From: an uncultured bacterium
GTDB lineage: Bacteria > Patescibacteriota > Microgenomatia > Levybacterales > UBA12049
Assembly: GCA_963826535.1 (NCBI GenBank)
Contig: CAWGXL010000011.1
Span: forward strand, 320,809 to 384,808
DNA length: 64,000 nucleotides
Direction of reading: 5' to 3'
The translations under genes were made by a program, and so were the position numbers. The notes under the pieces are model-generated. The model was not told where the DNA came from. It did not search any database and saw only the letters and a program-made list of their open reading frames with translations. Of the stretch, positions 11,352 to 64,000 are shown piece after piece; position 1 is the stretch's first letter, and the number at the start of each line of letters is the position of its first letter.

Positions 11352-11364
11352 AATGCAAATTGTC

Positions 11365-33796: not shown

Positions 33797-34246
33797 TTAT
33801 TGCTGGCTACCAGGTTGTGCTAGTTGCTGCGCTCTTATCGTTTGTTGCACTTTTTCCCAATTCGCGGCCTTCTGTACATAAACCTCTGCTTCTTTGGGAT
33901 CTGAGCTTGCATGGTACAATGCATGATCATGATAATTTCTAATCGTAGTGGAGCAGAACAACATTTTCCCATAAGACCCGCCTTCCTGCATTCGTTTAAG
34001 CTCTAAGACTTGATGTAATTGCCTAGAGCCAGCACCCTCCCAATGAAAAACCTGATCTTTATTTATCTGGGATGTAGAATGTTCAACAAGATTGTCGATT
34101 GCAATGGTTACGTCTTCAGGCTTGCCATTACCACTATCTATTCTCTGTATTGCTTCGACCATGGGTCTTAACGTCGGCTCTGTCTTCTCAGATCTAACAC
34201 TCTCTGGGTTTGAAGATAGTGGCATCTCTTTTCCTCTTTCGTCCAT
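33797..34246 (-). CDS. Hypothetical protein
   Basis: ORF only. Confidence 0.3.
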   Translation of the reverse strand: MDERGKEMPLSSNPESVRSEKTEPTLRPMVEAIQRIDSGNGKPEDVTIAIDNLVEHSTSQINKDQVFHWEGAGSRQLHQVLELKRMQEGGSYGKMLFCSTTIRNYHDHALYHASSDPKEAEVYVQKAANWEKVQQTIRAQQLAQPGSQQ

Positions 34247-35333: not shown

Positions 35334-36698
35334 CTATTCTTTAATAGCGGAAAGCTTGTAGCCCCGGGTGCGGACGGTGACTATTTCGTAGGGGCTGGCT
35401 TGCTGTTTTAGTTTTACTCGCACGCGGGCTACCAGTCTATCGATCGCCCAGTCGGAAATGCCTAATTCTTTGTATTCAGGCCATACTGTTTCAATGATCT
35501 CTTCTCTTTCGCAGATATTGCCAATATGGGATTCTAAGAGCGTGAAGAGCAGATGTTCTTTTTTAGTTAAATGGATGGTGTGTCCATTTTTGTTTTCTTC
35601 TTTTTCTCTTCCTTCAAGGTAAACGGCAAAAAGCGGGCTAAAGAGTAAGTCTTTGTTGTTTTCAACTTTTATAAAGCCTGTGTCCCATAAATATATATTT
35701 TTTTCTTTATCAACGGAGGCAATTTTTTCTTTTTTGTTTAAACTGGCAAGAAGTTTCTTCTCATCTTTTGTTAGGCTTTCCCATAATTCTTCCGATTGAA
35801 GGGTAATTCGCTCATCATGAACGAGGGTGTGAAAAAGTTCTTCGCTTGTGGTTGTTCCATTTATTTTTTTCTCATTGAGAATAATTAAGGCTAACTGCAA
35901 GTATTGTACGTTGCCATTTACCAAATTAAATAATGCTTCTTCAACTGTTGGATTAAGTAGTAAATTGTACCGTTGATTATAGGATTCATAGATTATTCGC
36001 ATATCTTTATCTATTGCAGGGCGCAAGTAAATAGTTTGTGTAAAAACAGAAAGGGAGGTTTTGGCTGCCGGGAAGATACTGTTCAAACTTCTGAAGCTTG
36101 TAAATACATAGGTTAATTCCTCATGGGTTGCATCACGCAAGCCTTGGAGATTGTTGAAAAAAGATGGAGTAAAAACTGCTGATATCCGGTCAAACCTGAT
36201 AATGAACAATGTAGGGAGCAGGCCCGCACCCACAATTAATAGCAGTGCTTGCCTAACATTATCTATGAGCATGAATAAATCTTGCGATTGAATACTATTT
36301 AGAAATAATGAGCCAATTTTATTTTTTGTAGCTTGGGGAAGTTTAGATTTCTCTACTTCGTCAACTATGCGCTTGAGAGTTAAAGTCCAGAATGGATATA
36401 TATCGAGTTCGATAAGGTCATTCAGATCAATTGGAATAAATAAATGCTCACGATTGTCGCCAATATAGGTTTTAATAATATCTTTATGGAAGAGAAAGAA
36501 CCTGAGGAAATTACTGATACCTATGCGTTTCATGCCAACGATATTTACGCTTTGGCGACGTCTTAATTGTGCTCCCAGTTCGCCCGCTTCTTTTTCACGA
36601 AAATTAAACGGGTACTCTGTTTCGAATATTGCAGGGATCATGTGGTAATTATACTCGAACTTCCAGTTAAGAATCAAATGCCGGATCAGAATTTCCAT
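35334..36698 (-). CDS. Degenerate P-loop NTPase fused to C-terminal OmpR/PhoB-type winged-helix DNA-binding domain
   Basis: N-terminal IVGMKRIGIS (GxxxxGxS). C-terminal LTKKEHLLFTLL...VW...AIDRLVARVRVKL...VTVRTRGYKL is a trans_reg_C signature. Paralog of 59862-61196. Confidence 0.55.
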   Translation of the reverse strand: MEILIRHLILNWKFEYNYHMIPAIFETEYPFNFREKEAGELGAQLRRRQSVNIVGMKRIGISNFLRFFLFHKDIIKTYIGDNREHLFIPIDLNDLIELDIYPFWTLTLKRIVDEVEKSKLPQATKNKIGSLFLNSIQSQDLFMLIDNVRQALLLIVGAGLLPTLFIIRFDRISAVFTPSFFNNLQGLRDATHEELTYVFTSFRSLNSIFPAAKTSLSVFTQTIYLRPAIDKDMRIIYESYNQRYNLLLNPTVEEALFNLVNGNVQYLQLALIILNEKKINGTTTSEELFHTLVHDERITLQSEELWESLTKDEKKLLASLNKKEKIASVDKEKNIYLWDTGFIKVENNKDLLFSPLFAVYLEGREKEENKNGHTIHLTKKEHLLFTLLESHIGNICEREEIIETVWPEYKELGISDWAIDRLVARVRVKLKQQASPYEIVTVRTRGYKLSAIKE

Positions 36699-49286: not shown

Positions 49287-50396
49287 ATGAAGGTTGAGAT
49301 TATTGTCAGTAATTTACGAGATAAGTTATCCTTTCTTAATCATGTTATATCTTCAAAAAGCCAACTGCCAATATTGTTTAATTTCCTGATTGAAACTGAA
49401 GATGGTAAACTTCGATTAAGTAGTACAGACCTTGAAATAGGAATGGAAACTTATATTCCTGCGACAATTAAAGAAGCGGGGGGAGTTACGGTGCCTGCGC
49501 GTACTTTTACCGAGCTCATAAACTCACTAACTGATGCCACTATTACTTTACAATCAACAGACAACAACCTTGAGGTAATTAGCAAGAAAACAAAAAGCGT
49601 GTTTCAAACAATGTCCAGGAAGGATTTCCCAAAACTTTACGATGTGCGCGGGGATTTGATCGCCGTAATGGACGCTAATGAATTACGAAAAGCTTTTTCT
49701 ACAGTAATTTTTTCTGCAAGTCAGGATACTACCAGGCCTGCCTTATCAGGTGTTTTAGTGAGGCGTGAGAAAGAGGGATTTTTGTTGGTGGCGACCGATG
49801 GTTTTAGATTATCCCTGCGACATTATAAACTACCTAATACAAACGAACAAACCTTAAAGTCTTTTATTGTATCCGCGCGTGTTTTCCGAGAGCTGTTAAC
49901 TATTAAAGAGGGTAAAAAGGAGGTTGAAATGTATATAGCAGGCGGAAGTAATCAGATTATTTTTCAGCAAGGGGATACCCTTATTATTGGAAGACTAATT
50001 GAAGCGGACTTTCCCAGTTTTGAGAAGATTATTCCAACTGACTTCTCGCTGAGCGTAACTTTTGACCGGGAAGAATTGCTTGACGCGGTTAAGATATGTT
50101 CTATTTTTGCGAGGGATAGCGCTAATGTTGTCAAATTAAGCTTACACAAAGATCATATTACTGTTTCTTCGTCATCTCCTTCAGTGGGAAATAATACTGT
50201 TGATGTGGATGCAAAGCTCAGTGGTGAGGAGAATGAGATTGCATTTAACGCGAAATATCTTTTGGATTTATTAAGTAATTTGTCTGAGGGTAGATTGGTT
50301 TTTGACATGATTGGGCCGCTTAACCCCGGGGTATTTAAAGTAGAAGGTGATGCTTCTTTTTTGCATTTAATTATGCCGATCAGGACAGGGGCGTAA
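49287..50396 (+). CDS. dnaN: DNA polymerase III beta sliding clamp
   Basis: Three-domain clamp architecture in the canonical position after dnaA. Confidence 0.9.
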   Translation: MKVEIIVSNLRDKLSFLNHVISSKSQLPILFNFLIETEDGKLRLSSTDLEIGMETYIPATIKEAGGVTVPARTFTELINSLTDATITLQSTDNNLEVISKKTKSVFQTMSRKDFPKLYDVRGDLIAVMDANELRKAFSTVIFSASQDTTRPALSGVLVRREKEGFLLVATDGFRLSLRHYKLPNTNEQTLKSFIVSARVFRELLTIKEGKKEVEMYIAGGSNQIIFQQGDTLIIGRLIEADFPSFEKIIPTDFSLSVTFDREELLDAVKICSIFARDSANVVKLSLHKDHITVSSSSPSVGNNTVDVDAKLSGEENEIAFNAKYLLDLLSNLSEGRLVFDMIGPLNPGVFKVEGDASFLHLIMPIRTGA

Positions 50397-50408
50397 AATA
50401 GGTTAATA

Positions 50409-51002
50409 CTACTGACAATTTGGAGCCAAAGTACTGAAAATAATATTTGAATCACCCAATTCATTCCTTATATCCCAATTTAAAATAAATTCGAGGGGGT
50501 AATTACAGATTGCGTCTTGACTGAATCCGCGATTTAGGAACCATTGAACAGCTTCTTCTTTTGCAAGGCTGATATTGGTTGTTTTTATTTCAACCTCGAA
50601 TATATTAAGTGTGCCATTATAGTCAATGCGCATGTTTGGAGATGTATATATTGTGCCTGACTCCGCATCTTCCGGCAGAAAATCTAATAATATTTTGAGC
50701 GCAGCCGCTTTATCGCTTTCTGAAAGAGGTTTTCTGTTTTGTATTTTTTCTATAAGCAGGTTTTGTGATGATGGATCATATTCTATTATGGGTTTTTTTT
50801 CAGGTTGAAAGTTTGGGGGTATATAAATAAAAGTGGGAGTTGTCGAGTTTTGTTGTGTTTGATTTTGCGCTGGTTGTTTAAGAGCTTTTCTATTAGCGCG
50901 TTGGGAGAGATAATTTAGATAGGTTATTACAACCATAATTATAATCAAGATTAAAGCTATTAATACAATTAAGATATTTTCGAATTTTATCTTTTTTATC
51001 AT
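50409..51002 (-). CDS. Hypothetical single-pass membrane protein (last gene of the T4SS-like operon)
   Basis: N-terminal TM. No recognisable domain. Confidence 0.3.
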   Translation of the reverse strand: MIKKIKFENILIVLIALILIIIMVVITYLNYLSQRANRKALKQPAQNQTQQNSTTPTFIYIPPNFQPEKKPIIEYDPSSQNLLIEKIQNRKPLSESDKAAALKILLDFLPEDAESGTIYTSPNMRIDYNGTLNIFEVEIKTTNISLAKEEAVQWFLNRGFSQDAICNYPLEFILNWDIRNELGDSNIIFSTLAPNCQ

Positions 51003-51017
51003 AATTTAATGTTTTTG

Positions 51018-52367
51018 TCAGCGACAGTTTGGTCTGCTTGCAGTGTGGCCTAACCCATCACCTCCTGGAAAAAGCTTATTCCATTTGCACCAATATCTAT
51101 ATGGGTCATTATTATTGTAACTTTTCATATAATTGATCCCATTACTGATTTGAGATTGCCAGTGGACATCTCCTAAGTCGGAGGAGTTATTTGATTTAAA
51201 CCTGCTCCCCATTTGGAATAATCCCCAAGCCCCATATGGGTTGGGAGTTCCTATGCCCGGGTCTGCCCAGGCAAGAGGATCTAAAGAGCTTTCTCCATTA
51301 AGAACAACGTGCCATTTTAACGCTCTTTCGGGGTCAAGTTGTTGTAGCATCTGGTCCAATTTAGGAATTGCGAAGTCGCATTGAGGATCGCCGAAATTTT
51401 CTTTAAGATAGCGGTTTTTGGCTATTCTAGCGGCGTATTTTGCGTTACAGTCGTCCAGGGTAGCGCTTTGGCTTGCGATGTCAGGGCAGGCAAATTCTCC
51501 ACTTGCGCCTCCTCCACCAAACTCGCCACCCCCGCCCTGAGCGGGCTCTTGGCCACCGGCAGGGTTAGCAGGGGCGGTGCTATTTCCAAAGTAGGTTATA
51601 TCCCAGTGGTTGAACCCACTTTCAAAAACATACTCGTTTCCATCATTATCCTTATATCTTGGACCACCATGTGCACCAGGTCTTTCTCCGTCAGGGGTTA
51701 AGCTTTTTATGTAATTTGATACGGCGTCGGTATTTCCGTTTGAAGTAATATCAACCTTATATCCACTCGGATGGGTGTGTTGTCCTTCCGATGAATGTCC
51801 CGGCTCTGTTCCGCCAAAAACTGTAAAAGAAGACCCGACTTTCTGTTTCAATTTAATGACTCCGTCTAAAGTAGATTGTCTTATGCCTCCGAGGTATGTG
51901 CACCCTTCGTTGTTTGTGAAGCAATGATTGGATGAGTCTATGGAAATACCTGCATTGCTTAGTTGTTGGGCTGCGGCATCATGAGAAACATCTCCTGTAG
52001 TTGCGCTTTGGCTGGCGGATGGGGTACAGCTGGTGGCTCCGCCTGCGCCTTCGGGAATATCATATCCGGTAAACATGGTAATAATTATGTTGATAATAAA
52101 TATAAAGAAAATAATTATTAAAATTGCGATTAAAACATAAGGATTAAGTACTACCCGAGCAGCAACTTGAGTTCCTATTCTAGCTGCTGCTTGCCCTGCT
52201 TTTGCTCCTGCTTTTGATGCTGCCTGACTTGCTTTTCGTGAGGCTAATTTATTAATTGAGGATTTAGGTGTTTGTAATTTTGCATGTCCATGAGCATGAC
52301 TATGAGATTTGTCATCTTCTTTTTCCTCTTCAGGCGGGGCTTGCTGTTCGTCTTCGGGATCCTGCAT
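51018..52367 (-). CDS. Membrane-anchored putative bifunctional peptidoglycan hydrolase (M15-like peptidase plus lytic-transglycosylase-like)
   Basis: Basic N-terminus plus TM. SEGQHTHPSGYKVDI with NHWDITY resembles the M15 SxHxxGxAxD and ExxH motifs. VLNGESS, GAWGLFQM and YNNN resemble SLT motifs I-III. Position next to VirB4 fits a VirB1-like role. Confidence 0.4.
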   Translation of the reverse strand: MQDPEDEQQAPPEEEKEDDKSHSHAHGHAKLQTPKSSINKLASRKASQAASKAGAKAGQAAARIGTQVAARVVLNPYVLIAILIIIFFIFIINIIITMFTGYDIPEGAGGATSCTPSASQSATTGDVSHDAAAQQLSNAGISIDSSNHCFTNNEGCTYLGGIRQSTLDGVIKLKQKVGSSFTVFGGTEPGHSSEGQHTHPSGYKVDITSNGNTDAVSNYIKSLTPDGERPGAHGGPRYKDNDGNEYVFESGFNHWDITYFGNSTAPANPAGGQEPAQGGGGEFGGGGASGEFACPDIASQSATLDDCNAKYAARIAKNRYLKENFGDPQCDFAIPKLDQMLQQLDPERALKWHVVLNGESSLDPLAWADPGIGTPNPYGAWGLFQMGSRFKSNNSSDLGDVHWQSQISNGINYMKSYNNNDPYRYWCKWNKLFPGGDGLGHTASRPNCR

Positions 52368-52386
52368 AGTTATATACTAGCAAATT

Positions 52387-54522
52387 TTAGGGTTTGGGGG
52401 GAAGAGCGGGTGATGGTGGGGAGGGGTTGACGTTTGTAGGGTTAGGTGGGGAGTGGTAGGTGGCGGCAGTTGGCGCGGTGGACGGCTTGGGGGGCGGGGA
52501 ACTGTGGAAAGTGGTTGCGGGTGGGGGATTCGTAGACGTATGGGTAGCAGAGGAGTCCGGTTCTGTAGACTCAGACTGTTTGTTTATAATAGTCATGGCT
52601 TCTTTAGCTTGTTGTCTTTTTAATAATTCCATGGGATTGGATGTAATAAGTTCATGTTCGAATGGAGCAGCAAATGTTTTCATGGCAACATGGTTTTGAC
52701 CGGCAAAGAAAAGTCCTTCGCCAACATCGGCTGAAAGCAGAAGGGCTTTTTCTCCTTCAGAAAGATAGAAAGTTTCGGCGATTTTGTCTACTTCGGCTGT
52801 TCCTTGTTTGAGAAGTATTTGAATAGAGGAATTGGTAAGGACGGCTTTGCCATAGTTGGTTTTCATAAAATCTTCTACGTCCTGGGTAGCAGTAGTCATG
52901 CCCAGGAAGTATTTTCTAGCGCGTTTGGCAATGGAGTAAACGAAAGAGGCGGAATCTTCATATTTCATCATATACCAACCCTCGTCCAGAATAAGCAGGC
53001 GCTTTTTGAGAGTTTTTTTGACTTTGGTCCAGACAAAATCGAGGATAATATGCATGGCGACCGGCCGAAGTTCTTCTTCAAGATTGCGGATGGAAAAAAT
53101 GGTCAGACTATTGTTGATTTCAAAGTTTGACTGTTGATTGAATATTCCTGAGGCGCTTCCTTTGATGAATTTTTCAAGACGATAGGCGAGATCTCTGGCT
53201 GTGGAGGTTTCATAACCTAACAGCACTTTATATAAATCCTCCAAGAGGGGCGGCTGCTTTTTTTGGGTTGCCGGGTCAGTTGTGATACCTTTTTGGCGGT
53301 AAGTTTCAATCATAGCCCGGTCTAAAATTGCGTCATGTTCGGCATCCATATCGCCCATGATAATATTAAGTAATCCGTGAAGGGAAAGAACTTTTAGGCC
53401 CAATTCGTTTTCTCCTTCTTCAAATACGCCTGACATGTCAAAAGGGTTTATTTTTATAGTGGATCCGGACGAGAATTCTACAACTTCTCCGCCTAATTCA
53501 GGCGCGATTGTGCCATATTCTCCTTCGGGATCAATTACAATTACTTCAGCGCCGAGCATGAACTGACGCAGAATTTCAAGTTTTATAAGATAGGATTTTC
53601 CAGCACCCGATTTTCCTAAAATAACTTCGTTGGCATTTTCTAAGGTGAACCTGTCGAAGATAATCAACGAGCCGTTTTGTTGATTTACGCCATACATAAC
53701 ACCTCTATTTTGCGTTAAAACGGCAGATGTGAAAGGAAAAGTGGAAGCCAAAGAAGTTGTGTCCATATTTCTAGTGATATATAAACGGTCTTGTCCCATG
53801 GGTAGTGTTGATCTAAAACCGTCTTCCATTTGTAATGTAGCAATTTTGCCGGTTAGTAAGAGTGCGCCCAGGGCAGTCTGCAGCTCTTTGACTGTTTGTT
53901 GGAGCTTTGCCAGGTCGTCGATGGAGACAGTGAGGTAGAGGGAGAACTGAAAGAAGCGTTCAATGCCTTTAGCAAGCTCCTCTTGAAGTCCGAGAGCGTC
54001 TTCTAATGCAGCTTCGGTTGTCGGGTCTGCGGCTTTACCTTGCTCGCCATCTGATTGGATAGTTGCCTGCATTTCGGCAATTTTTCTTCTCAAATCGGCT
54101 AAAACGTCTTTTGAAGATGTGGGGTATATAAACATGGCGATATCCAAAGTGTGATCATAGTCAATTATGGGTTGTAACCAGCCAGGAGAGACGTAGCGTG
54201 GGTAGCCAGCCGCAAATAAGGTTGAGTAAAATGTGTCACTAACGCGGATAAAGCGGAAGTCAACTTCAACAGACGATGGCGAAATGATATCAATAATAGA
54301 TGAGAGACCTTTCTCTAGGGTTTGCAGGTTTGACGCAGGCGCTGGTTTTGGTTTTGTTTGAGCTGTTTTTGCCGGACGCAAGACTGTTCCCGGCTTCACC
54401 GGCTTTGAGACTACAGCATGGTTGGCAGGGTGCGCGTTTATACCCGGCTTGGCAAGTGGTGGTACACCCCGGGGTGTTGCTTGTGATTGTTGGTTTGGTT
54501 TTTTTAAAAAGGGCAGATTCAT
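52387..54522 (-). CDS. Type IV secretion ATPase, VirB4/TrbE/CagE family, with Pro-rich C-terminal tail
   Basis: Walker A GKSGAGKS, Walker B LLILDEGW, the conserved VirB4 block in its C-terminal half, and a low-complexity P/S/T-rich tail. Confidence 0.75.
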   Translation of the reverse strand: MNLPFLKKPNQQSQATPRGVPPLAKPGINAHPANHAVVSKPVKPGTVLRPAKTAQTKPKPAPASNLQTLEKGLSSIIDIISPSSVEVDFRFIRVSDTFYSTLFAAGYPRYVSPGWLQPIIDYDHTLDIAMFIYPTSSKDVLADLRRKIAEMQATIQSDGEQGKAADPTTEAALEDALGLQEELAKGIERFFQFSLYLTVSIDDLAKLQQTVKELQTALGALLLTGKIATLQMEDGFRSTLPMGQDRLYITRNMDTTSLASTFPFTSAVLTQNRGVMYGVNQQNGSLIIFDRFTLENANEVILGKSGAGKSYLIKLEILRQFMLGAEVIVIDPEGEYGTIAPELGGEVVEFSSGSTIKINPFDMSGVFEEGENELGLKVLSLHGLLNIIMGDMDAEHDAILDRAMIETYRQKGITTDPATQKKQPPLLEDLYKVLLGYETSTARDLAYRLEKFIKGSASGIFNQQSNFEINNSLTIFSIRNLEEELRPVAMHIILDFVWTKVKKTLKKRLLILDEGWYMMKYEDSASFVYSIAKRARKYFLGMTTATQDVEDFMKTNYGKAVLTNSSIQILLKQGTAEVDKIAETFYLSEGEKALLLSADVGEGLFFAGQNHVAMKTFAAPFEHELITSNPMELLKRQQAKEAMTIINKQSESTEPDSSATHTSTNPPPATTFHSSPPPKPSTAPTAATYHSPPNPTNVNPSPPSPALPPKP

Positions 54523-54523
54523 G

Positions 54524-55186
54524 TTACTCCTTAGTTCCTCCTGTAATTATTGTAGCATTTGTGCCGTTTTCCATTTGCTCTACCTGTATGCCGGCACCCT
54601 CATTATAGATATCATAGAAGAGTTTTATCAGATCTTCTTTTTCTAAAATTCTAGCGGACATGGCAAATTTCTGCAATTGTGTTAATATAGAGTCAGCTTT
54701 TGAACTCAGCGATTTTTTGGCCTTATCGGCAAAAACTTCAATTTCCGTAGTTTTTTTCTGTGAGGAATGTGCGGCTCCGCTTACTCCACCTTCAAGCGCA
54801 GAGTAGGGTATAGCTATGTAAAAGGATTTACTCAAGACAACATTGACTGTTACCATTTCATGGACAAAGGTTCGATATAATTTAATATGAGTTTTTAATT
54901 GAGGTGATTTGGTGGTGTTTTCTATTTCGTCCAGCTCCTTCAAATAAGAACTGATATCCATCCGTTTATTGCGGATTATAATTTGAATAGGAAACGAGAG
55001 AGAGTTGAGGAGTGCGGCGTATGAGAAAATTCTTGTGTCCTGTTCCCTTTGGGACAAAAGAGCAAAGTTACTTGCAGTTATTTCGATTATTAAACACGCG
55101 TTTCCTCCTTCCAGGATCACGATATTGTCAATGAAATCAATAATCTCTGTAAATTTTTGTGTTGACGCATGAATTTTTTTGGCCAT
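54524..55186 (-). CDS. Hypothetical protein translationally coupled to VirB4 (T4SS-associated)
   Basis: Stop codon lies 1 nt before the virB4 start. No TM. Might be a separately encoded VirB4 N-terminal-domain-like piece. Confidence 0.3.
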   Translation of the reverse strand: MAKKIHASTQKFTEIIDFIDNIVILEGGNACLIIEITASNFALLSQREQDTRIFSYAALLNSLSFPIQIIIRNKRMDISSYLKELDEIENTTKSPQLKTHIKLYRTFVHEMVTVNVVLSKSFYIAIPYSALEGGVSGAAHSSQKKTTEIEVFADKAKKSLSSKADSILTQLQKFAMSARILEKEDLIKLFYDIYNEGAGIQVEQMENGTNATIITGGTKE

Positions 55187-55232
55187 AGTTTATGACGTAA
55201 GACGTAAGACGTAAGACGTAAGAATTTTCATT

Positions 55233-56342
55233 TTAATTAAATAGTTGTTTATGTAATTCTTCCCGGGCGTCGTGTGATATTATTTCAATTGGGAGCATGA
55301 TTTGTTTGTTAGCGTTTATTTGGATAATGCCAAATGCATGTTGTTTTTTGGGGTCTTCGAGTTCAATTGCATAGGTACCATCTGCCAGGGGAGTGGCTGA
55401 GGCGAATTGCCCCAAGGGATTGGTTTTAAATGCACGAACAGGATTTCCATCTTTATCCTTTACCTCAACTAGAATATTAGGTAGTGAATTTCCCCGAGAA
55501 TCCTTAACAATACCGACGACAACATTGGGGGTATCAGATACATGAGGGAAACCTGCGCTTTTAGTCATATTCTGCGGTATGTTTCGGGCATGGGCTAAGT
55601 CTTGGGCGGGTGTTTGCTTTACTAATTGATGCTGAAGGAGCACCGGTTTTGGTTTCGGGGGGATTTGCGTTTGGGAGGTTACTATATTTGCTGGGTGCAG
55701 AAGTGCACCCGGATGCGCGGGATGCAAGGCTGCACCCGACTTTGGACTAGAAACTGGAAAATGGAGCGTTGGTTTTGTAGGAGTTTTTATTGTCACTGGC
55801 GCAGCAGTAAGTATGGGTTGCGGAGTTGGGGTAGGCATGGCGGCAATTGACTGTAAAAAGGCGACTTCTTTTTTATCCAGGGTATTTTTTGTATTCTGAT
55901 AGCTACTTGCTAATAATGCGCGGAGTTGCTGTCCCTTTTTGCTTTCCTGAAATACCTGACTTGTGGATTTTTGTACTGCTGTTGTTGCTTTGGCTGGTGG
56001 AGCTTTTGCGTAGCTAATTTGTGTAAAACTAAATTTTCTCCCTTTTTTAATATAGACATATTGATTGGGCGAAAATAAGGCGTGAAAGAAATTAGTGGTC
56101 ATTATATCAACCGGTCTTCCTTCAATTGGCACAAACGCTATTATAACGCCGGATAAACCGAATATCGGCACCAGTATTCCTTTGGTCACGAAATGCCAGA
56201 GGAATCCTTGTACAGGCGCATACCAGGATAGGACAGCCAGGATCGCACCGGCAGCAACATAACCAAACTGTTTGACAGTCATAGTGCCTATCAGCTTGAA
56301 CTGAAAGCCTGTTACATCTTGTGGGATCGGATGCTGCTCCAT
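55233..56342 (-). CDS. Membrane protein with VirB3-like two-TM N-terminus, Pro-rich linker and C-terminal carboxypeptidase-regulatory-like beta-sandwich domain
   Basis: TM hairpin FGYVAAGAILAVL and VPIFGLSGVIIAFV. C-terminal VVVGIVKDSRGNSLPNILVEVKDKDGNPV...DGTYAIELE. Start at the internal ATG; the track ORF starts at 56474. Confidence 0.4.
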   Translation of the reverse strand: MEQHPIPQDVTGFQFKLIGTMTVKQFGYVAAGAILAVLSWYAPVQGFLWHFVTKGILVPIFGLSGVIIAFVPIEGRPVDIMTTNFFHALFSPNQYVYIKKGRKFSFTQISYAKAPPAKATTAVQKSTSQVFQESKKGQQLRALLASSYQNTKNTLDKKEVAFLQSIAAMPTPTPQPILTAAPVTIKTPTKPTLHFPVSSPKSGAALHPAHPGALLHPANIVTSQTQIPPKPKPVLLQHQLVKQTPAQDLAHARNIPQNMTKSAGFPHVSDTPNVVVGIVKDSRGNSLPNILVEVKDKDGNPVRAFKTNPLGQFASATPLADGTYAIELEDPKKQHAFGIIQINANKQIMLPIEIISHDAREELHKQLFN

Positions 56343-56532
56343 ATAAATAAATTCCGAGCCGCCATCAGTCAGCCCCGATTTTATCTGGGTCAGTTGACGG
56401 AGGCGGACGGCCTTTCTATTACAGAAAGTGTATAACGTGAAAAATTTGATTGCAAGAGCATCAAAGTGATTCAAACATGATAGGAAATTGTGATTAGATT
56501 CTTGTTTTCACAGGTAGGAGGCTGCGAAGTAA

Positions 56533-57243
56533 ATGTTTTGTATAATAAAACAAATGACAGTATTTCATTTAAAAATTATCGCTATCCTTACTATGGTTAT
56601 AGATCATATCGGTTTATACTTTTTTCCCGATATATTATTGTTTCGTATAGTTGGAAGGATTTCATTTCCGATTTTCGCATGGCTCATAGCTAATGGGGAA
56701 AAGCATACACAAAATATAAAGCGTTACTTGATCCGTTTATTTCTGTTTGCTTGTATATCTCAGCCTTTTTTTTATCTAACATATATCAATATAGATCCCA
56801 CATTTGATGGTCTAAATGTACTTTTTACCCTTTTTATTGGACTTGGTGCAATAATTGCGTTAAAGAAAATCAGAAATAAATTTTTAGCACTTATTTGTAT
56901 TGTATTGATGGCTGCAATGGCCGAAGTAATTAAGTCCGATTATGGTGCGATAGGTATTTTATCAATTGTATTCTTTTATATATTCTATAACAAAATGGCA
57001 AAAATGGTATTATCCCAGATATTTATTTATACAGCTGCATACTGGTTGTCGTTTCCGTTTTTCCCGAGTGAGCAGTTTTTTTTAAGCTTAATACAATCAT
57101 TTATTGGACTGACAGTACTTTTCTCATTATTTCTAATAATGAGATACAAGGGAGTTGAAGGTCCGAGAGTAAAACATCTTTTTTACGTGGTTTATCCGAT
57201 GCAGTATGTGGTAATTTATTTATTGCAAAAATTAGTTTATTGA
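56533..57243 (+). CDS. traX: TraX-family protein (F-pilin acetylase-like polytopic membrane protein)
   Basis: FHLKIIAILTMVIDHIGLYFFPD resembles the TraX family N-terminal signature. Multiple TM helices. Confidence 0.55.
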   Translation: MFCIIKQMTVFHLKIIAILTMVIDHIGLYFFPDILLFRIVGRISFPIFAWLIANGEKHTQNIKRYLIRLFLFACISQPFFYLTYINIDPTFDGLNVLFTLFIGLGAIIALKKIRNKFLALICIVLMAAMAEVIKSDYGAIGILSIVFFYIFYNKMAKMVLSQIFIYTAAYWLSFPFFPSEQFFLSLIQSFIGLTVLFSLFLIMRYKGVEGPRVKHLFYVVYPMQYVVIYLLQKLVY

Positions 57244-57572
57244 CAGCCTGTCATGAAAGTATTTAAATCAGTGAAGCCGGTGATACATGCTGTAGTGTTG
57301 GTAATGTAGCCGATGAAGTAAAGTATTGCGAAGGAGAGCAGGACTATTACAAGGCCTAGTATCGCGAATGTCATAATTTTTCTTGCACCTTCGACTTTTT
57401 TTGCGTCTCCTCCTGAGGTGACCATGCTTAATCCCGCATACATAATGAAGATAATAGCTACTATGCCAACAAACAGAAGAGCTGCGCTAATTACGTTCTT
57501 GAAGACAATAGGAATACAAGTGAGTTTAGGTATGCCGCTTGGATCAAGACAGCTATCCCAGGTCATGAACAT
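57237..57572 (-). CDS. VirB2/TrbC-like T4SS pilin candidate (paralog 1)
   Basis: About 110 aa with two hydrophobic helices joined by VTSGGDAKKVEGAR. Paralogous to the next two genes. Confidence 0.5.
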   Translation of the reverse strand: MFMTWDSCLDPSGIPKLTCIPIVFKNVISAALLFVGIVAIIFIMYAGLSMVTSGGDAKKVEGARKIMTFAILGLVIVLLSFAILYFIGYITNTTACITGFTDLNTFMTGCQ

Positions 57573-57733
57573 GTTTTAAGCTTAGCAATATGCTGAAAAA
57601 AAATCAAGAGTCAAGGCGTAACACTTCCCACCGTTAAGCTGGGCAACGCTCAGGTAGTATACTTATTATCGCTAGGATCCTTGGGATATTTTGAAAGTAG
57701 AGGGGTATAAATGTTACAAGAGGAGCGGTGTGA

Positions 57734-58138
57734 TTAAGCACCTAAGAGTTGTGGAAGAGACATGTTTTGGATATCGATTCCGAATAATCCTGCTACCAGT
57801 GAAACGATGAAGTAGGCGAGGAAAACAAGAACTAAACCGACAATTCCTCCTATAATTGTGTTTCTCGCTGCTTCAACTTTTGCCTTGTCTCCACCTGAGA
57901 CTATCCATTTTATACCTCCCCAGACTAAGAAGATGAGAGCTACAACGATAGCTATGATGAAAAGGGCTGTGAGTATGTTGCTAACCAGTTTTCCAAAATC
58001 ACTAGCTTGTAGACTGCAGACAACATTGAAATCTCCTTCAGGACAGGTGCTTATCTGTGCATAAGCCGGAAGCGCTAATGTTAGGGGAGCAAGAAGTCCG
58101 GTGACTGCTGCGATTAATTTTTTCAATTTGTTTTTCAT
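57734..58138 (-). CDS. VirB2/TrbC-like T4SS pilin candidate (paralog 2, with signal peptide)
   Basis: Signal peptide ending AYAQ, then hydrophobic helix, IVSGGDKAKVEAAR, hydrophobic helix. Confidence 0.5.
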   Translation of the reverse strand: MKNKLKKLIAAVTGLLAPLTLALPAYAQISTCPEGDFNVVCSLQASDFGKLVSNILTALFIIAIVVALIFLVWGGIKWIVSGGDKAKVEAARNTIIGGIVGLVLVFLAYFIVSLVAGLFGIDIQNMSLPQLLGA

Positions 58139-58198
58139 TACTTATTAATCATAAAACACTTTTTTACGGTTTGTCAATAGCTAAAATAGCTGAGCCTA

Positions 58199-58537
58199 TT
58201 AGAGGTTGAAATTCCAGAGATTAATATTGAAGAAATAGTTGAAGGCGCTGATGATAGCGAAGGAAATGAAGATTATGACCAGTCCGATAATTGCCCAGGT
58301 AAGACGAGCTCTGGCATGTGCGATTTTTTCTTTATCTCCACTGGAGGTGACCCATTGAATTCCGGCCCAGATGACAAATAATATTGTGACTACAATGCCT
58401 ACTGTAATAAAAAGTGTAAAGACATTGCTGATAATTGTTGATTCAGTCCCAGGTTGGGGTAGAGATGCGGGGGAATTGACGGTTTGGCCGCCAACTGTGA
58501 GAGCTAGATATTCCATATATATACAATATAATTTCAA
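58199..58537 (-). CDS. VirB2/TrbC-like T4SS pilin candidate (paralog 3)
   Basis: WAGIQWVTSSGDKEKIAHAR between two hydrophobic helices. Confidence 0.45.
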   Translation of the reverse strand: MKLYCIYMEYLALTVGGQTVNSPASLPQPGTESTIISNVFTLFITVGIVVTILFVIWAGIQWVTSSGDKEKIAHARARLTWAIIGLVIIFISFAIISAFNYFFNINLWNFNL

Positions 58538-58635: not shown

Positions 58636-59826
58636 ATGCGTAGTTTTTATTACCTTATCCTTTTTATAATTCTTGGTACTGCGTTGTATTTCCCTATTTT
58701 CTCTGTTGGATTTATAGGCGATGATGTGCCTCAATTAGTAAAATTTAAATATTTTCATAACCTTGACGCGGTTACAGATATTTTTTTCAAGGTCATTGCT
58801 ACTCCTACCGGACATCACAACAGTTTGCTCGGTTTCTTTTATCGTCCTCTTACGTTCTCAGTTTATACACTTTTATATTATTACACTCAGGCCAACCCAT
58901 TTTACTTCCATGTATTGCAATTTTCTCTTTTTATTACGGCTACATATCTTTTGTTCCTGTTTTTCAAAACATTTTATTCGACGCGGCTTTCACTTGGACT
59001 CGCAGCTGTTTTTTTAATTCATCCTGCCAATGCAGAACTGGTTGCGTATATTGCCGCGCTTGCCGATACAATGTGCCTTCTTTTTGGCATTGCCGCATTT
59101 AATATAATGGCCAGGACTAAAAGATCATCGCTTTTGGTAGTTATTCTTGTTTGCGCATTGTTACTACTTTCACTGCTGGCAAAGGAAGCCGGAATATTAT
59201 TCGTTATACTTGCCGGAATATATGCAATCAACATAAAAAAGTTAAAAAGTTATTGGTTGCCATTAATCATTACGGTGGGGGTGTATAGTGTATGCCGGAT
59301 AAATGCTGCGCAACATATTTTATTCACCACACTTAGTAATCCAATGGGCAATTTAAGCTTATTAGAGCGCATCTTACAAGCTCCACAATTCGCGTACGCA
59401 TTGATTCGAGAACTTATTATCCCGACGAGAATCGCATTAAAACCGGGTATGTTTCATGCTGATTTCACATTTAGTATATTTCCGTTAATAATGCTTTGTT
59501 TTTTCGTATTTGTAGCTGTTGTACTTTGGATACTGATAAAAAAGTATAATAAAAAAAGCGTTTCAACGTACTTATTTTTTCTATGCTGGATATTTGTGGG
59601 CATCTTGCTTTATGTCCATATTATTCCTCTAGAGGTGTTGTTTGCCGACAGGTGGTTATATGTAGCAGAAATAGGATTGCTAGGAGCGATTGCGATTATA
59701 CTGAAAACGTTTCCGCTAAATAGAAACAAATGGTTAAGATTGTGTGGTGTACTTATTGGAATTGTGGTGTTACTTTATGCAGTAGAGACGATGGTTATTA
59801 ATTTTAAGTGGGCGGAGTGGCACTGA
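58636..59826 (+). CDS. Polytopic membrane protein, possibly a GT-C-type glycosyltransferase
   Basis: About 11 TM helices, with an acidic GDD motif in the first extracytoplasmic loop. Confidence 0.3.
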   Translation: MRSFYYLILFIILGTALYFPIFSVGFIGDDVPQLVKFKYFHNLDAVTDIFFKVIATPTGHHNSLLGFFYRPLTFSVYTLLYYYTQANPFYFHVLQFSLFITATYLLFLFFKTFYSTRLSLGLAAVFLIHPANAELVAYIAALADTMCLLFGIAAFNIMARTKRSSLLVVILVCALLLLSLLAKEAGILFVILAGIYAINIKKLKSYWLPLIITVGVYSVCRINAAQHILFTTLSNPMGNLSLLERILQAPQFAYALIRELIIPTRIALKPGMFHADFTFSIFPLIMLCFFVFVAVVLWILIKKYNKKSVSTYLFFLCWIFVGILLYVHIIPLEVLFADRWLYVAEIGLLGAIAIILKTFPLNRNKWLRLCGVLIGIVVLLYAVETMVINFKWAEWH

Positions 59827-59861
59827 ACGCGCAGTTGAAGAAAGCCAGGGAAGGGGGTAAA

Positions 59862-61196
59862 ATGATTAATATGGAAGAAAAACATTTTGAGTCGCTTTAT
59901 CCGGAGACAGCATTCTATTATGAGATAGACCGCTTGATGGTTAATTTGCGCGGCGGAAAATCGTGTCAGCTTTTGGGCTTGCCGGGAGTTGGGAGGTCCG
60001 ATGTATTGGAGCTTTTGGCTTACAATAAAAATATTCGTGAAAAACATTTGAAAGATAATAATAAATTTGTGCAATTTGTATTTGTGGATTTTTCGGAGAT
60101 CCGGAAGCGTTCGCTTTTTGACGCGATGAAATTTTTATTTTTGAGCCTGGCGGATTCACTCAGGGACAGAGGATTAATGGAAGAGTATGGACAGGTGAAT
60201 GAAGCCTTGCGCGAGGCACTGAGCTTCCATGATGAGCTGGTGTTATTTCAAGAATTAAAAACAGTTGTTGATTATTTGGCACTCCAAAAAAAGCTGACTT
60301 TGGTATTTCTATTTAACCGATTTGAGGATTATATCCCGTCTGTTACCAGTGAGTTTTTCAGCAATTTGCGTATACTGCGCAACCGGGCAAAGTATAGGTT
60401 TTCTATTATATTTTCAACAAGCAGACCGCTTGAGGAGCTTTTGGACCCGATGCTTCTGGCGGATTATTATGAATTTGTGGCGGGAAATTTGGTGTATATA
60501 AGATTTTACGATGAAGTCGCGACTAATTTTTTGCTAACGTACCTTGAAAAATTGACGAAGAAGAAATTGAGCAAGGCGCAGCACACGGAAATATTGCGAT
60601 TGACCGGGGGGTATGCAAAGCTTGTCAGGTTGGCATTTGAGGCGTGTTTGGCGAATGAGCCAAAAGCGCAGGATCTAACAGATTTTCTTTTAGCACAGAA
60701 ACCTATTCAAGTGGCTTTAACGGAAATTTGGCTCGCGCTAACACCGGCGGAACAATCAGATATTTTGCAGAATATTTTTGAAGATCCGGCTGTTGACAAG
60801 TATCTTGAGGAGTCGGGATTGGTTAAAGATAAGAAGTTAAAGCTACCGCTTTTCGCAAAATTTGTCGCGACACTTAATATTCAAACTAAATCAGATATAA
60901 AAATTGAATATGATGAGAATACAAATTCTATACGCCGCGGGAAGGCTGTACTTTCGGATAGCCTTACTTCATCGGAATTCCGGCTGTTGCGATATTTGTT
61001 ACAAAATCAGGAGCGGGTAATTGAACGGGATGCGCTTATTGCTATTGTTTGGCAGGGGGTTAAGTCAACTGCGGGGATAACGGATCAGGCGGTTGATCAG
61101 TTGATTTTCCGTTTGAGGAGAAAAATTGAAGAGGATCCTAATAAGCCGGTATATCTTCAGACTGTGAAGGGGAGAGGGTTTAAGTTTGCTTCGTAA
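59862..61196 (+). CDS. Degenerate P-loop NTPase fused to C-terminal OmpR/PhoB-type winged helix (paralog of 35334-36698)
   Basis: GLPGVGRS (GxxGxGRS). C-terminal LTSSEFRLLRYLLQN...VW...AVDQLIFRLRRKIE...LQTVKGRGFKF. Start at the ATG preceded by AAGGGGGT. Confidence 0.55.
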   Translation: MINMEEKHFESLYPETAFYYEIDRLMVNLRGGKSCQLLGLPGVGRSDVLELLAYNKNIREKHLKDNNKFVQFVFVDFSEIRKRSLFDAMKFLFLSLADSLRDRGLMEEYGQVNEALREALSFHDELVLFQELKTVVDYLALQKKLTLVFLFNRFEDYIPSVTSEFFSNLRILRNRAKYRFSIIFSTSRPLEELLDPMLLADYYEFVAGNLVYIRFYDEVATNFLLTYLEKLTKKKLSKAQHTEILRLTGGYAKLVRLAFEACLANEPKAQDLTDFLLAQKPIQVALTEIWLALTPAEQSDILQNIFEDPAVDKYLEESGLVKDKKLKLPLFAKFVATLNIQTKSDIKIEYDENTNSIRRGKAVLSDSLTSSEFRLLRYLLQNQERVIERDALIAIVWQGVKSTAGITDQAVDQLIFRLRRKIEEDPNKPVYLQTVKGRGFKFAS

Positions 61197-61290: not shown

Positions 61291-61623
61291 ATGAACAATC
61301 AAGTTGAATTGACACCACTTAGCGCGAAAAGCTATCATGGAAATATGACAGACAGTAATACAGCTGAGAAGCTACAGGGGCAAGTTTCTGCGAAGGCAGC
61401 AGAAACGAAACCGGAGACACCTGTTGTAGATAAGACTGCTAAAGATTCACCTATTTTCCGAGTGGTGACAGATAAAACGGAGGTTGAAGAGGATAAGAAG
61501 CGTTTTGAGCAGCGTAAGTCTAATACCGTGGAAAAAAAAGAGAAAAGAAAAAGAGGAATTGGTAGTAAGTCGAATTCCACAGATGGCGCGGAGAGAGATT
61601 ATTGCGGAGCAAAAAAATCATAA
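61291..61623 (+). CDS. Small charged hypothetical ORF, possibly the 5' part of the following large gene
   Basis: Ends in a Lys/Glu-rich stretch spanning an A8 run. The long frame +1 ORF that follows begins upstream of its stop codon. Confidence 0.3.
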   Translation: MNNQVELTPLSAKSYHGNMTDSNTAEKLQGQVSAKAAETKPETPVVDKTAKDSPIFRVVTDKTEVEEDKKRFEQRKSNTVEKKEKRKRGIGSKSNSTDGAERDYCGAKKS

Positions 61624-64000
61624 AGAGGAGGGCAGCGGAGGTATTTTGGCGGCGTTTTTGGAGTTTTTGATTAATTTATTAGGGGGGGAAAATAAGGAAG
61701 ATTTGGAGACGAGAATTGAGAATTCTGAGGCTATGAAAGGGCTTTTGGCATATTGGAGTTTAAGGCCACAGAATAAATGGAATGCTACGGATTATGCGAG
61801 AGTAATTGAAATGCTTACACCGGATACATCAAACGAGGCGGCTATTATTAAAGTTAATCTTAAGAAGGAAGCAGCGTCGAAAGGAATTAGTGAGGTATTT
61901 AGTGCGCGAGCACAGCTTGAGTCTGAGTCTCTTGAGACAAAGCGGAAAGCAGGGGGCGTAAAGCGAAGTCCAGAGGGGGAAGCGAAGCATATGGCGATTC
62001 AGATGAATTATGAACTGTGGAAAGATATGGCGCGGAAGAATGAGCTGTCCAGATTAAGTGCAGAAGAATTGGCGGAATTTAATAAGCAGTTAAAAAAAAT
62101 TATATCCAGGGGCGGGGGCGCGACTGAAGATTTGGACAAAATAGCATATTTGTTTAATGGCTTGTCTATAGAGTTTGGAAAAGACAGACCGCTTATGAGA
62201 GCAAAAATGAGTTCAGAAGGAAATGGGTCTATAAGACTTGCTACTTCTGATGGCGTTACAGTAGATGATGGATTGAAAGGAAAAGGCGATAGCGATAGTA
62301 ATAGAGGCGGCGGCAAGGGTAAGCCACCAGGCAGCGGTCCAGGAGGCGGAGACGGAGATGATCCTCAGTGGCAGCAGGTAAAACTGTTGAAAGAACAGAT
62401 TGGATATCAGAAGCAAAGCGTGGACCTTCTGGCTCATGCGGTTGGCGTTTTAGAGCAGATAAGTAAAAAGATAGACGGGATAACTGTGCTTATGAGCAAG
62501 GATCCGTATGATACAGCGTTAAGGGAACAGCTTATTCTTTATAGTAAGCGACAGGCTGAGGCGACGGAGCATATGGAACAAATGATGGGAAGAGAGCGTA
62601 CGGGGGAGACAACTGAAAGTGTTTTGATGGAGAAGATGGCAGGGATTAGGTATTTGATTGAGATGCGTAATAATCCCAATAATCCCGATCTGAATCCTAA
62701 TCAGCCAGGGATTGATAAGTATGAGCAAGATTTTCGCATAGGCATGAAGTTGCTTTATCAGAAGTTGGAAAAGGAGTCTCGTGAGAGCGGTATTGATATA
62801 AGCATACTTGTGGCTCAGGAGGAAAGCAAGCATTTTGAGGAATTAAAGCGGTGGATGGCAGTTATAATAAAAAATTCACAACATAATTCTCACAATGATA
62901 ATCCCGGATTGTTTTTGCCGAAGGATAAATACAATACTTTTAAAGGTTTACTTGAAATGCCGTCGGATATTTATGATTCCGCATATGGTATGGATATTAG
63001 GAAGTATGAAGGAGCGTTGGAGGGTGCAGTAACTAAATTGGAGGAGCAAAAACTTCCCCGTTATTTTAGAGGGGTTGAATATTCTCAGGGTTTGGGGAAA
63101 GAAGTGGATGGTATACCAAATAATTTGGAGGAAACTGTGCAACTGATTATCAGGACCTGGCCTATTGAAAACTATGCACCAGGGCAAGAGTTTGAGATAT
63201 TTAATAAGAAGGGCGAGTTTCAAATGAAAAATTTTAAATACTGGATGGAGGTGCGTATGCGGGAGAAGTCTCTTGAGTATCCCCAGTCTCAGATTGATCC
63301 ATTGAACATGATTCAAGTTAATGCAGGATTGTTAAACCTTAATTTGGCACAGATACTATCAGTGCCCCAGTATACACAACATAGTGAGGTTGTGATCAGT
63401 GGAGACGCATCAAATGAACTAAATTTGGAAAAAACGGTTAAGGCGCATTTGGGAGACGGAAAAGTGCATCCGCATCTTAATTTTGACAGAAGGATTGATT
63501 TGATAGTCGAATCCTGGCTACATGGCGTGGTACATAATGCCTGGGTGGGGCTACATAGTTTTGAGGCAAAAAATACAGCCGGTGGCTGGATTCAAGCATT
63601 GGGTGGGGTTCTCAATGAAAATAATTTATTTAGAGGTGATCATTGGTGGAGATTGCTTAAGACGGCATCACTTAAAGGAAATGAAGTAGAGAATTATTAT
63701 GACAAGGGAGAGCAGGGAAGCTTGGGTTTGGGGAGGAGTAGCATGATGTTGGCATTTCAACATTTGACCGAGTTTTCGGAGTATTACACGAAGCTGAACG
63801 GTCACGGAAAAGCTATTGGAGTTCGACCAGTGGAGGGGAACGGAGAGAACGGGAATATGTTTTATTCTGTTTTGGAATATAACGGGTCAAGTGTGTTTCT
63901 GCAGGGAGTTGCCGAAGGCGCGTTGAATTATGGGAATGCCGCGGAACGGGGTCAATCAATGGAGGAGGCTTTTTCAGGAGCGACTATTAAAGAACACTAT
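61583..64000 (+). CDS. Large hypothetical protein (more than 805 aa, 3' end beyond the window), absent from the ORF track
   Basis: Manual translation of the frame with ATG at 61583 and again at 61991 gives an uninterrupted ORF to position 64000. It includes a Gly-rich GKGDSDSNRGGGKGKPPGSGPGGGDGDD stretch. No motif recognised. Confidence 0.55.
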   Translation, partial: MARREIIAEQKNHKEEGSGGILAAFLEFLINLLGGENKEDLETRIENSEAMKGLLAYWSLRPQNKWNATDYARVIEMLTPDTSNEAAIIKVNLKKEAASKGISEVFSARAQLESESLETKRKAGGVKRSPEGEAKHMAIQMNYELWKDMARKNELSRLSAEELAEFNKQLKKIISRGGGATEDLDKIAYLFNGLSIEFGKDRPLMRAKMSSEGNGSIRLATSDGVTVDDGLKGKGDSDSNRGGGKGKPPGSGPGGGDGDDPQWQQVKLLKEQIGYQKQSVDLLAHAVGVLEQISKKIDGITVLMSKDPYDTALREQLILYSKRQAEATEHMEQMMGRERTGETTESVLMEKMAGIRYLIEMRNNPNNPDLNPNQPGIDKYEQDFRIGMKLLYQKLEKESRESGIDISILVAQEESKHFEELKRWMAVIIKNSQHNSHNDNPGLFLPKDKYNTFKGLLEMPSDIYDSAYGMDIRKYEGALEGAVTKLEEQKLPRYFRGVEYSQGLGKEVDGIPNNLEETVQLIIRTWPIENYAPGQEFEIFNKKGEFQMKNFKYWMEVRMREKSLEYPQSQIDPLNMIQVNAGLLNLNLAQILSVPQYTQHSEVVISGDASNELNLEKTVKAHLGDGKVHPHLNFDRRIDLIVESWLHGVVHNAWVGLHSFEAKNTAGGWIQALGGVLNENNLFRGDHWWRLLKTASLKGNEVENYYDKGEQGSLGLGRSSMMLAFQHLTEFSEYYTKLNGHGKAIGVRPVEGNGENGNMFYSVLEYNGSSVFLQGVAEGALNYGNAAERGQSMEEAFSGATIKEHY

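Follow-up and report, generated by a model that had tools for sequence, protein, structure and literature searches.

The stretch of DNA analysed here, referred to as the window, is a 64-kb segment of contig CAWGXL010000011.1 from an uncultured bacterium of the Levybacterales (Microgenomatia). Next to dnaN, it carries a cluster of genes related to those of type IV secretion systems (T4SS), which encode a VirB4-family ATPase, a TrsD-like protein, a PrgI/VirB3-like membrane protein, a candidate cell-wall hydrolase, a small bitopic membrane protein (p197) and three VirB2/TrbC-like pilins, with a TraX-family gene lying between the pilins and prgI. These nine open reading frames (ORFs) had all been reported by a first-pass annotation made from the letters of the sequence, and each of them was recovered at the same position (Table 1). 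For comparison, 80 loci, many of them cut off by contig ends, were retrieved with the VirB4 protein from species-representative genomes.

Table 1. Position of the cluster genes and of their neighbours in the 64-kb window
Product	Position	Strand	Length (aa)	Basis or remark
DnaA	47503-48993	+		Conserved neighbour of the cluster
DnaN	49287-50396	+		Conserved neighbour of the cluster
p197, bitopic membrane protein	50409-51002	-	197	One transmembrane helix; C-terminal domain of ~120 aa
VirB1-like hydrolase candidate	51018-52367	-	449	Ortholog profile; transmembrane helix
VirB4-family ATPase, CD1110/MPF_FATA type	52387-54522	-	711	NF045971; Walker motifs
TrsD/TraD-like protein	54524-55186	-	220	VirB4 N-terminal and TrsD/TraD matches
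PrgI/VirB3-like protein	55233-56342	-	369	PrgI PF12666; CarboxypepD_reg; ORF open upstream to 56474
TraX-family polytopic membrane protein	56554-57243	+		PF05857
VirB2/TrbC-like pilin, paralog A	57237-57572	-	111	T4SS_pilin 22.9 bits
VirB2/TrbC-like pilin, paralog B	57734-58138	-	134	T4SS_pilin 48.1 bits; TrbC 33.2 bits
VirB2/TrbC-like pilin, paralog C	58199-58537	-	112	T4SS_pilin 44.6 bits
Polytopic membrane protein	58636-59826	+	396	About 8 or more hydrophobic segments; between pilin array and regulator
AAA-like protein with OmpR-type winged helix (Trans_reg_C)	59808-61196	+		Divergent from pilin array
Large soluble protein, 5' part	61469-64000	+	at least 844	Runs off the end of the window

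VirB4 and its detached N-terminal domain

When compared with curated families, the ATPase scored 378 bits against NF045971, the CD1110 family of VirB4 proteins, for which the cut-off is 325 bits. It contains a Walker A motif (GKSGAGKS, residue 303) and a Walker B motif (LLILDE, residue 509), and both of its ends are formed by Pro-rich tails. In the CD1110 model, which has 752 positions, the alignment starts only at position 175, as fits an N-terminal domain encoded as a separate protein. More than 7,700 homologs were found at E≤1e-20; the best 120 of these are 72-85% identical to the query, and those named among them come from Levyibacteriota/Patescibacteria metagenome-assembled genomes (MAGs).

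The stop codon of the preceding gene lies 1 nt ahead of the virB4 start. The encoded TrsD-like protein aligns, between model positions 102 and 279, to a full-length VirB4 model built on mycoplasma integrative and conjugative elements (ICEs), with an E value of 4e-8, and more weakly to the TrsD/TraD family (E 1e-3). Both the VirB4 N-terminal region and TrsD were matched by all 20 orthologs tested, nine of which also matched the CD1110 VirB4 model, and the ortholog of an annotated relative (L161) carries the PF26593 TraC-like annotation. A search of PDB sequences with the TrsD profile gave no match. Since the double match is found in every ortholog tested, it was concluded from these alignments that the TrsD-like protein is the N-terminal domain of VirB4 in detached form.

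The pilin array and the PrgI-like protein

The three small proteins each contain two transmembrane (TM) helices in a hairpin topology. They share 25-32% identity in pairwise comparisons and have the loop motif W.G...VTSGGD..K...AR...IGLV in common. Two of the three exceed the gathering score (GA) of the T4SS_pilin family (PF18895, GA 26.6 bits), one of which also matches TrbC (PF04956); paralog A scores below this threshold but is a clear paralog of the other two. By eye, paralog B starts with a segment that resembles a signal peptide and ends in AYA/Q, and paralog A has no evident signal peptide. An array of three is the modal size: 47 of the related loci have at least one pilin gene, and in 25 of these there are three.

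More distant Levybacteria loci (for example L025:2527-3699, L027:1896-3086, L048:4943-6346, L063:1627-3642) encode a further type of protein, which we term extended pilins. These are 360-670 aa long, head the pilin array and consist of a long N-terminal extension followed by a C-terminal T4SS_pilin domain that scores over the Pfam threshold. None is encoded in the window.

The PrgI-like protein matches PF12666 right at the threshold (27.7 bits, GA 27). It is adjacent to virB4 in the manner of VirB3 but, with 369 aa and an extra conserved domain, is larger than a canonical VirB3, which is a small (10-15 kDa) two-TM protein. Two N-terminal TM helices are followed by a Pro-rich linker of ~165 aa (encoded at ~55548-56042) and by a beta-sandwich (~55236-55547). 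The match of the latter to CarboxypepD_reg (27.2 bits) is below GA (32.3 bits), a value that is exceeded by two of the three orthologous domains tested (33.7 and 36.6 bits); the orthologous domains also reach into two prealbumin-like families, SdrD_B and SpaA. The fusion of this beta-sandwich to PrgI was observed in 71 of 74 related loci, where the prealbumin-like domain is the most conserved part of the protein (~75-85% identity by eye) and the linker is variable.

Canonical VirB3 proteins have short N- and C-termini, both of which are cytoplasmic (PMC12857230). The PrgI-like protein has only two hydrophobic segments, the second of which is followed by a K/R-rich stretch, and by analogy with the canonical topology its C-terminal beta-sandwich may therefore also be cytoplasmic. 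Domains with this type of fold are more usual in surface proteins, which tempers the argument.

Thus, the initial assignments of the ATPase to VirB4, of a 220-aa protein coupled to it, of three two-helix VirB2/TrbC-like paralogs with a shared motif, and of a two-TM VirB3-like protein with a Pro-rich linker and a carboxypeptidase-regulatory-like beta-sandwich are all borne out by the profile searches, the 220-aa protein being now identified as TrsD-like. The further suggestion that the beta-sandwich forms the tip of a surface structure is made doubtful by the canonical VirB3 topology and the number of TM helices.

Candidate cell-wall hydrolase and p197

The gene following virB4 encodes a protein with one TM helix (residues 78-96), a possible LAS/M15-like domain (~105-275) and a lysozyme/SLT-like domain (~290-449). 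Used alone, its sequence gave no match in a family search and only three sequences in a homolog search. Its last ~160 residues correspond to a domain that is encoded immediately after virB4 in 28 of the 80 loci. A profile built from 24 orthologs of this domain matches C-type lysozymes of the PDB (E 1.9e-5), the invariant Glu of the profile (putative catalytic Glu359) being aligned to the lysozyme catalytic Glu, and nine of the 24 members individually match Pfam SLT. A lysozyme/SLT-like nature of the C-terminal domain is thus supported by the ortholog profile, which makes the protein a VirB1-like candidate.

The middle domain is common only to the window and to the closest relative, L001. It contains the motifs H-x2-G-x3-D (HPSGYKVD, residue 199) and NHWD (residue 253), which resemble those of Peptidase_M15_4, and other relatives carry a canonical Peptidase_M15_4 domain at the same position. 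A hidden Markov model (HMM) built from these canonical domains failed to detect the middle domain of the window. The domains of this fold class include the N-terminal domains of hedgehog proteins, which share the LAS/M15 fold. Such hedgehog N-domains were the top Foldseek matches of a single-sequence AlphaFold2 (AF2) model of the middle domain; the model was of low confidence (pLDDT 50), and the matches were weak but consistent (E 0.14-1, TM-score 0.3-0.4). Of the M15-like and SLT-like motifs announced for this protein, the second are therefore upheld by the 24-ortholog profile; the motifs and the weak structural matches lend the first weak support, and an M15-like identity is plausible but unproven.

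The last gene of the operon encodes p197, whose C-terminal domain has two invariant Cys. No match to p197 was obtained in family searches or, with its profile, among PDB sequences, and the single-sequence homolog search returned the query itself only. It belongs to a cluster-specific family that was found in 31 loci, with one to four tandem copies, often two to four. A fold search from a poor single-sequence AF2 model (pLDDT 47) gave nothing meaningful, so that a VirB8/NTF2-like identity of p197 is neither supported nor excluded.

Gene order in related genomes

The 80 loci belong mostly to MAGs of Candidatus Levyibacteriota or Patescibacteria, some of them mislabelled, and their VirB4 proteins are 54-84% identical to that of the window. 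Many of the records with this cluster (L001, L007, L010 and others) bear titles such as "uncultured Gammaproteobacteria" or "Acidoferrales" and are probably mislabelled bins.

The same order of genes recurs in the relatives: a divergent winged helix-turn-helix (wHTH) regulator, the pilins, PrgI, TrsD, VirB4, the hydrolase, one or more p197-like genes, dnaN, dnaA and yidC. TrsD is present in 76 of the 80 loci and PrgI in 74, and the chromosomal neighbours dnaN, dnaA and yidC were found in 59, 55 and 48 of them, respectively. This order is repeated in the independently annotated relative L161, where no relaxase, integrase or other mobility gene lies within ±10 kb of the cluster. Likewise, no relaxase, type IV coupling protein (T4CP/VirD4), VirB6 or integrase was recognised among the ORFs of the window, whose translations were read and partly covered by HMM searches, and no repeats flank the parts of the cluster that were examined.

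The conservation of both gene order and chromosomal place across relatives points to the vertical inheritance of a chromosomal system. From gene content and order, it was concluded that the cluster encodes a T4SS-related apparatus that is chromosomal and non-conjugative, located beside dnaA/dnaN, and is not an ICE. The first-pass annotation had arrived at the same view, including the lack of relaxase, VirD4, VirB6 and integrase, and this view agrees both with the synteny of the 80 loci and with the literature (PMC12102498, PMC12857230). It had also presented the triplicated pilins, TraX and the modified VirB3-like protein as an unusual combination. This does not hold: given the modal three-pilin array and the almost universal beta-sandwich fusion, the combination is ordinary for the lineage, and TraX is sporadic.

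Flanking genes and chromosomal setting

Beyond the pilin array, the 396-aa polytopic membrane protein matched no family, a homolog of it is encoded in none of the 80 related loci, and the lack of homologs marks its gene as a window-specific insertion that provides context only. The 3' end of this gene overlaps the start of the regulator gene, and the pilin array is bracketed by this gene on one side and by TraX on the other. An identification of this protein as VirB6 was considered and, for want of both family matches and homologs, could not be established.

Orthologs of the wHTH protein occupy the same position in 27 of the 80 loci, and it has a paralog in the window at 35334-36698 (-), which likewise combines an AAA-like N-terminal part with an OmpR-type winged helix. 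It is a candidate regulator of the T4SS or of its pilins. The gene that follows encodes the 5' part of a large soluble protein, whose family members are ~1000-1700 aa long (for example L003:2094-5147(-), L007:1834-4809(-) and L009:1-5013(-)). No TM helix and no P-loop were found in it, and no match was obtained in Pfam or NCBIfam, nor among PDB sequences, which were also searched with the family profile. Iterative HMM searches tie it to a family that, in at least 17 of the related loci, is encoded beside the wHTH regulator and the pilin array, and it could be a T4SS-associated factor or a substrate.

On the other side of the cluster, rnpA-yidD-yidC together with dnaA-dnaN span 45.8-50.4 kb of the window. 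The p197 and dnaN genes are convergent, with 12 nt (50397-50408) between their stop codons, in which no terminator-like hairpin was found. DnaA boxes are not significantly enriched (22 matches for 17.6 expected), and the proximity of the cluster to the origin is consequently deduced from gene content only. The GC content of the window (~0.36-0.45) is low, as is typical of genome segments of small candidate phyla radiation (CPR) bacteria. Scans of the 64 kb for tRNA genes and for Rfam families gave no match. In public collections, the exact VirB4, hydrolase and TraX proteins are all recorded on one contig of 894,453 bp.

Ruv proteins, DnaG and other housekeeping proteins are also encoded in the window, and genes for a type IV pilus, among them PilB, PilC and pseudopilins, occupy 7-18.7 kb. 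Within this set, two tandem pseudopilin-like genes, at 7069-8154 (-) and 8211-9635 (-), encode proteins whose first ~150 aa are identical, and the second one bears a long (TPTP)n-type Pro/Thr repeat. In this region, which also takes in 10203-12498 (-), four neighbouring genes end in similar C-terminal domains with the motif HWKFDEGSG...RIYNRALS, beside PilC/PilB. This looks like a recent duplication inside the type IV pilus locus. Elsewhere, a homolog of AbiEii-type nucleotidyltransferase toxins (PF08843, E 1e-14) is encoded at 34310-34948 (-), with a small unannotated ORF (33797-34246) downstream.

Interpretation of the cluster

T4SS of this kind have been described in Patescibacteria. Quinonero-Coronel et al. 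(2025) defined a Patescibacteria clade of VirB4 proteins, sister or related to MPF_FATA, in which TrsD is the most abundant associated component and VirB3 is of the PrgI type (PMC12102498). In the same survey, VirB2 arrays of 2-11 genes with a mean identity of 25% were especially abundant in Microgenomatia, where VirB6 is scarce; relaxases were rare near Patescibacteria virB4, and dnaA, dnaN and rnpA were enriched there (PMC12102498). Southlakia epibionticum ML1 depends on its T4SS (Wang et al. 2023, as summarised in PMC12857230 and PMC11665869), which is essential together with the pilin array, and a pilus or conduit to the host has been proposed. The function of the Patescibacteria T4SS is called unknown in reviews (PMC11665869, PMC12857230).

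Against this background, we consider with a probability of about 0.8 that the cluster is a vertically inherited, chromosomal, Patescibacteria-type T4SS of Levybacteria-like (Microgenomatia) CPR bacteria, derived from the MPF_FATA conjugation machinery of monoderms and uncoupled from DNA-processing genes. The identities of the genes, their conserved synteny and the lack of relaxase, T4CP and integrase in cis are observed; what we infer for the assembly of the apparatus, the formation of a pilus, the substrate and the direction of transport is as follows. The two-TM PrgI/VirB3 protein and TrsD, the detached VirB4 N-terminal domain, would hold VirB4, as an oligomer, at the membrane. The membrane-anchored lysozyme-like (possibly also LAS-peptidase) protein would open the wall locally, as VirB1 does. 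VirB4 would then pull the three VirB2-like pilins, which are divergent, out of the membrane and build from them a polymer, a pilus or a conduit, in contact with the host bacterium. Such a conduit could serve the exchange of effectors or of molecules derived from the host and would so support an epibiotic life style. The divergent wHTH protein would probably regulate the pilin array, and p197 and the pilins themselves are candidates for the equivalents of VirB6 and VirB8.

Several points weigh against this model. Neither a VirB6-like polytopic channel nor a VirB8-like protein was recognised in the cluster; a T4CP was not found in the window and might be encoded elsewhere in the 894-kb genome. 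The VirB4 protein fits the Patescibacteria clade, a placement drawn from its nearest neighbours only. In addition, we know of no experiment on any member of the Microgenomatia and, to our knowledge, the formation of a pilus by a monoderm T4SS has never been demonstrated.

Few machines have been shown to be essential for an epibiotic CPR bacterium, and the Patescibacteria T4SS is among them (PMC11665869, PMC12857230). The present locus shows how uniform the Levybacteria version of this system is: a fixed order beside dnaN, three pilins, a split VirB4 (TrsD and VirB4), an extra conserved domain on VirB3, a lysozyme-like hydrolase directly after virB4, a conserved small membrane protein, a conserved regulator and a large protein nearby. 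These lineage-wide features, and not TraX, are useful leads for modelling the structure of a minimal T4SS of monoderms, one that may form a pilus. As a whole, the first-pass interpretation keeps its core and loses the unusual combination and the partnership with TraX; its surface-exposed beta-sandwich is doubtful and its M15 domain weak.

Alternative explanations

Among the other explanations, the one that survives best is that the apparatus is an uptake machine for DNA, nucleotides or other host molecules, in the same way as Helicobacter ComB imports DNA without a coupling protein. The lack of T4CP and relaxase in cis would suit such a function, which has been proposed as a possibility for Saccharibacteria, and CPR bacteria are described as lacking nucleotide biosynthesis (PMC11665869, PMC12857230). 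However, nothing in the sequence tells in which direction transport runs, components specific to ComB were not recognised, and the conserved ~1000-aa soluble protein beside the cluster could equally be a secreted substrate. We regard uptake as possible but clearly the less probable explanation.

It is unlikely that the three small proteins are channel subunits embedded in the membrane, which would replace the missing VirB6 without building any pilus. Such a role would account for a cluster that has no VirB6 homolog; the middle paralog weakly matches transmembrane (VirB6-like) families of mycoplasma ICEs, and monoderm T4SSs normally lack pili (PMC12857230). Against it stand the T4SS_pilin and TrbC matches over the Pfam gathering scores, a hairpin topology with a conserved inter-helix loop that is typical of VirB2, and a divergence between paralogs that resembles that of surface-exposed pilin arrays (PMC12102498).

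A role of TraX in the system, in which it would acetylate or acylate the N-terminus of the adjacent pilin or pilins, as in F-type systems, and so give a modified pilus, appears equally improbable. The membership of the protein in the TraX family, as first annotated, is solid (PF05857, 127.9 bits for a GA of 25), its gene directly abuts the pilin array, with a 7-nt overlap between its 3' end and the last pilin gene, and the closest relative, L001, has TraX in the same position and orientation. Nevertheless, L001 is the only one of the 80 related T4SS loci to carry TraX, the score against the F-type equivalog TIGR02755 (46.5 bits) is far below the cut-off of 149 bits, and PF05857 is a very large family (9,379 representative clusters at E≤0.001). 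A search of metagenomes with the single TraX sequence found nothing. When the search was based on an alignment, 80 TraX loci were obtained, only two of which have T4SS genes within 8 kb: L086, with a pilin gene 2 kb away, which speaks for such a role, and L112, with VirB4 and TrsD ~5 kb away. This is roughly what would be expected by chance for genomes of ~0.9 Mb. Furthermore, the gene sits between the pilin array and prgI on the opposite strand, where it breaks a run that is co-directional elsewhere and is not co-transcribed with the pilins, and a cleavable signal peptide exposing a new N-terminus was seen by eye in only one of the three pilins. No repeats suggesting a mobile insertion surround TraX. 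Judged by its rarity, its linkage and its distance from the F-type equivalog, TraX is a sporadic, lineage-specific insertion and not a conserved part of the machine or a conserved partner of the pilins. In the T4SS model preferred here, TraX and the 396-aa membrane protein would both be such insertions, beside the array and outside the core.

More doubtful still is a combined scheme, in which the PrgI beta-sandwich, if cytoplasmic, would be a substrate-docking module in place of the missing coupling protein, with the ~1000-aa soluble protein as its candidate substrate, and in which TraX and the 396-aa protein would be lineage-specific enzymes that modify the pilins.

Finally, the possibility that the cluster is an ICE or a decayed ICE, its T4SS genes being recent cargo and its relaxase and integrase lying just outside a window that extends only 5.5 kb past the pilin array, is very remote and already largely refuted: the cluster genes do have homologs in MPF_FATA conjugation and GC is slightly raised (0.42-0.45) across 51-56 kb relative to the flanks, but this rise coincides with Pro-rich coding tails, the same order is kept in the same place by dnaN/dnaA/yidC in 55-59 of the 80 related genomes, the range of VirB4 identities fits vertical descent, no tRNA gene was found in the window and no integrase or relaxase was recognised among its ORFs as read and partly covered by HMM searches, the latter two being absent also within ±10 kb of the cluster in the annotated relative, and relaxases are rare near Patescibacteria virB4 (PMC12102498).

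Comparison with known systems

The ComB system of Helicobacter pylori, a T4SS like the present one, is also chromosomal, and it operates with neither a relaxase nor a coupling protein in cis. In contrast, it consists of a diderm set of VirB2-4 and VirB6-10, and no sequence affiliation with it extends past the VirB4 superfamily. As in the F plasmid, with its TraA and TraX proteins, a TraX-family gene adjoins genes for two-helix pilins in the window; however, this TraX is not the F-type equivalog, the linkage is not kept in relatives, and no other MPF_F genes accompany it.

With the Prg/Pcf system of pCF10, the cluster shares the PrgI family, an adjacent VirB4-type ATPase and an N-terminal TM helix on modular hydrolases of the PrgK kind. 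The PrgI of pCF10 has 117 aa and no extra domain (PMC12857230), and counterparts of PrgH (VirB6), PrgL/PrgD (VirB8-like), the adhesin PrgB and the relaxase PcfG are absent here. The Trs system of the staphylococcal plasmids pGO1/pSK41 and the Tra system of the enterococcal pIP501 (MPF_FATA; TrsC/TrsD/TrsE), which serve conjugation, have VirB3-like, TrsD/TraD and VirB4 genes in a row, together with a membrane-anchored cell-wall hydrolase within the operon, as observed here. They differ in being plasmid-borne, with relaxase and T4CP and without VirB2-like pilins, and the VirB3 protein of the window is three times longer.

The closest correspondence is with the Patescibacteria-clade T4SS. The cluster of the window differs from it in having no recognisable VirB6, VirB8 or T4CP, in the PrgI beta-sandwich, which is not discussed in the main text of PMC12102498, and in the TraX gene and the unclassified membrane protein that bracket the pilin array in this sublineage. 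The two have in common an MPF_FATA-type VirB4 with an adjacent TrsD-like protein, PrgI/VirB3, an array of divergent VirB2-like pilins, whose identity is 25-32% here for a reported average of 25%, a peptidase/lysozyme-type gene directly after virB4, and a relaxase-free, chromosomal location near dnaA/dnaN/rnpA. The cluster is thus a typical member of the published Patescibacteria-type T4SS and not a new kind of system.

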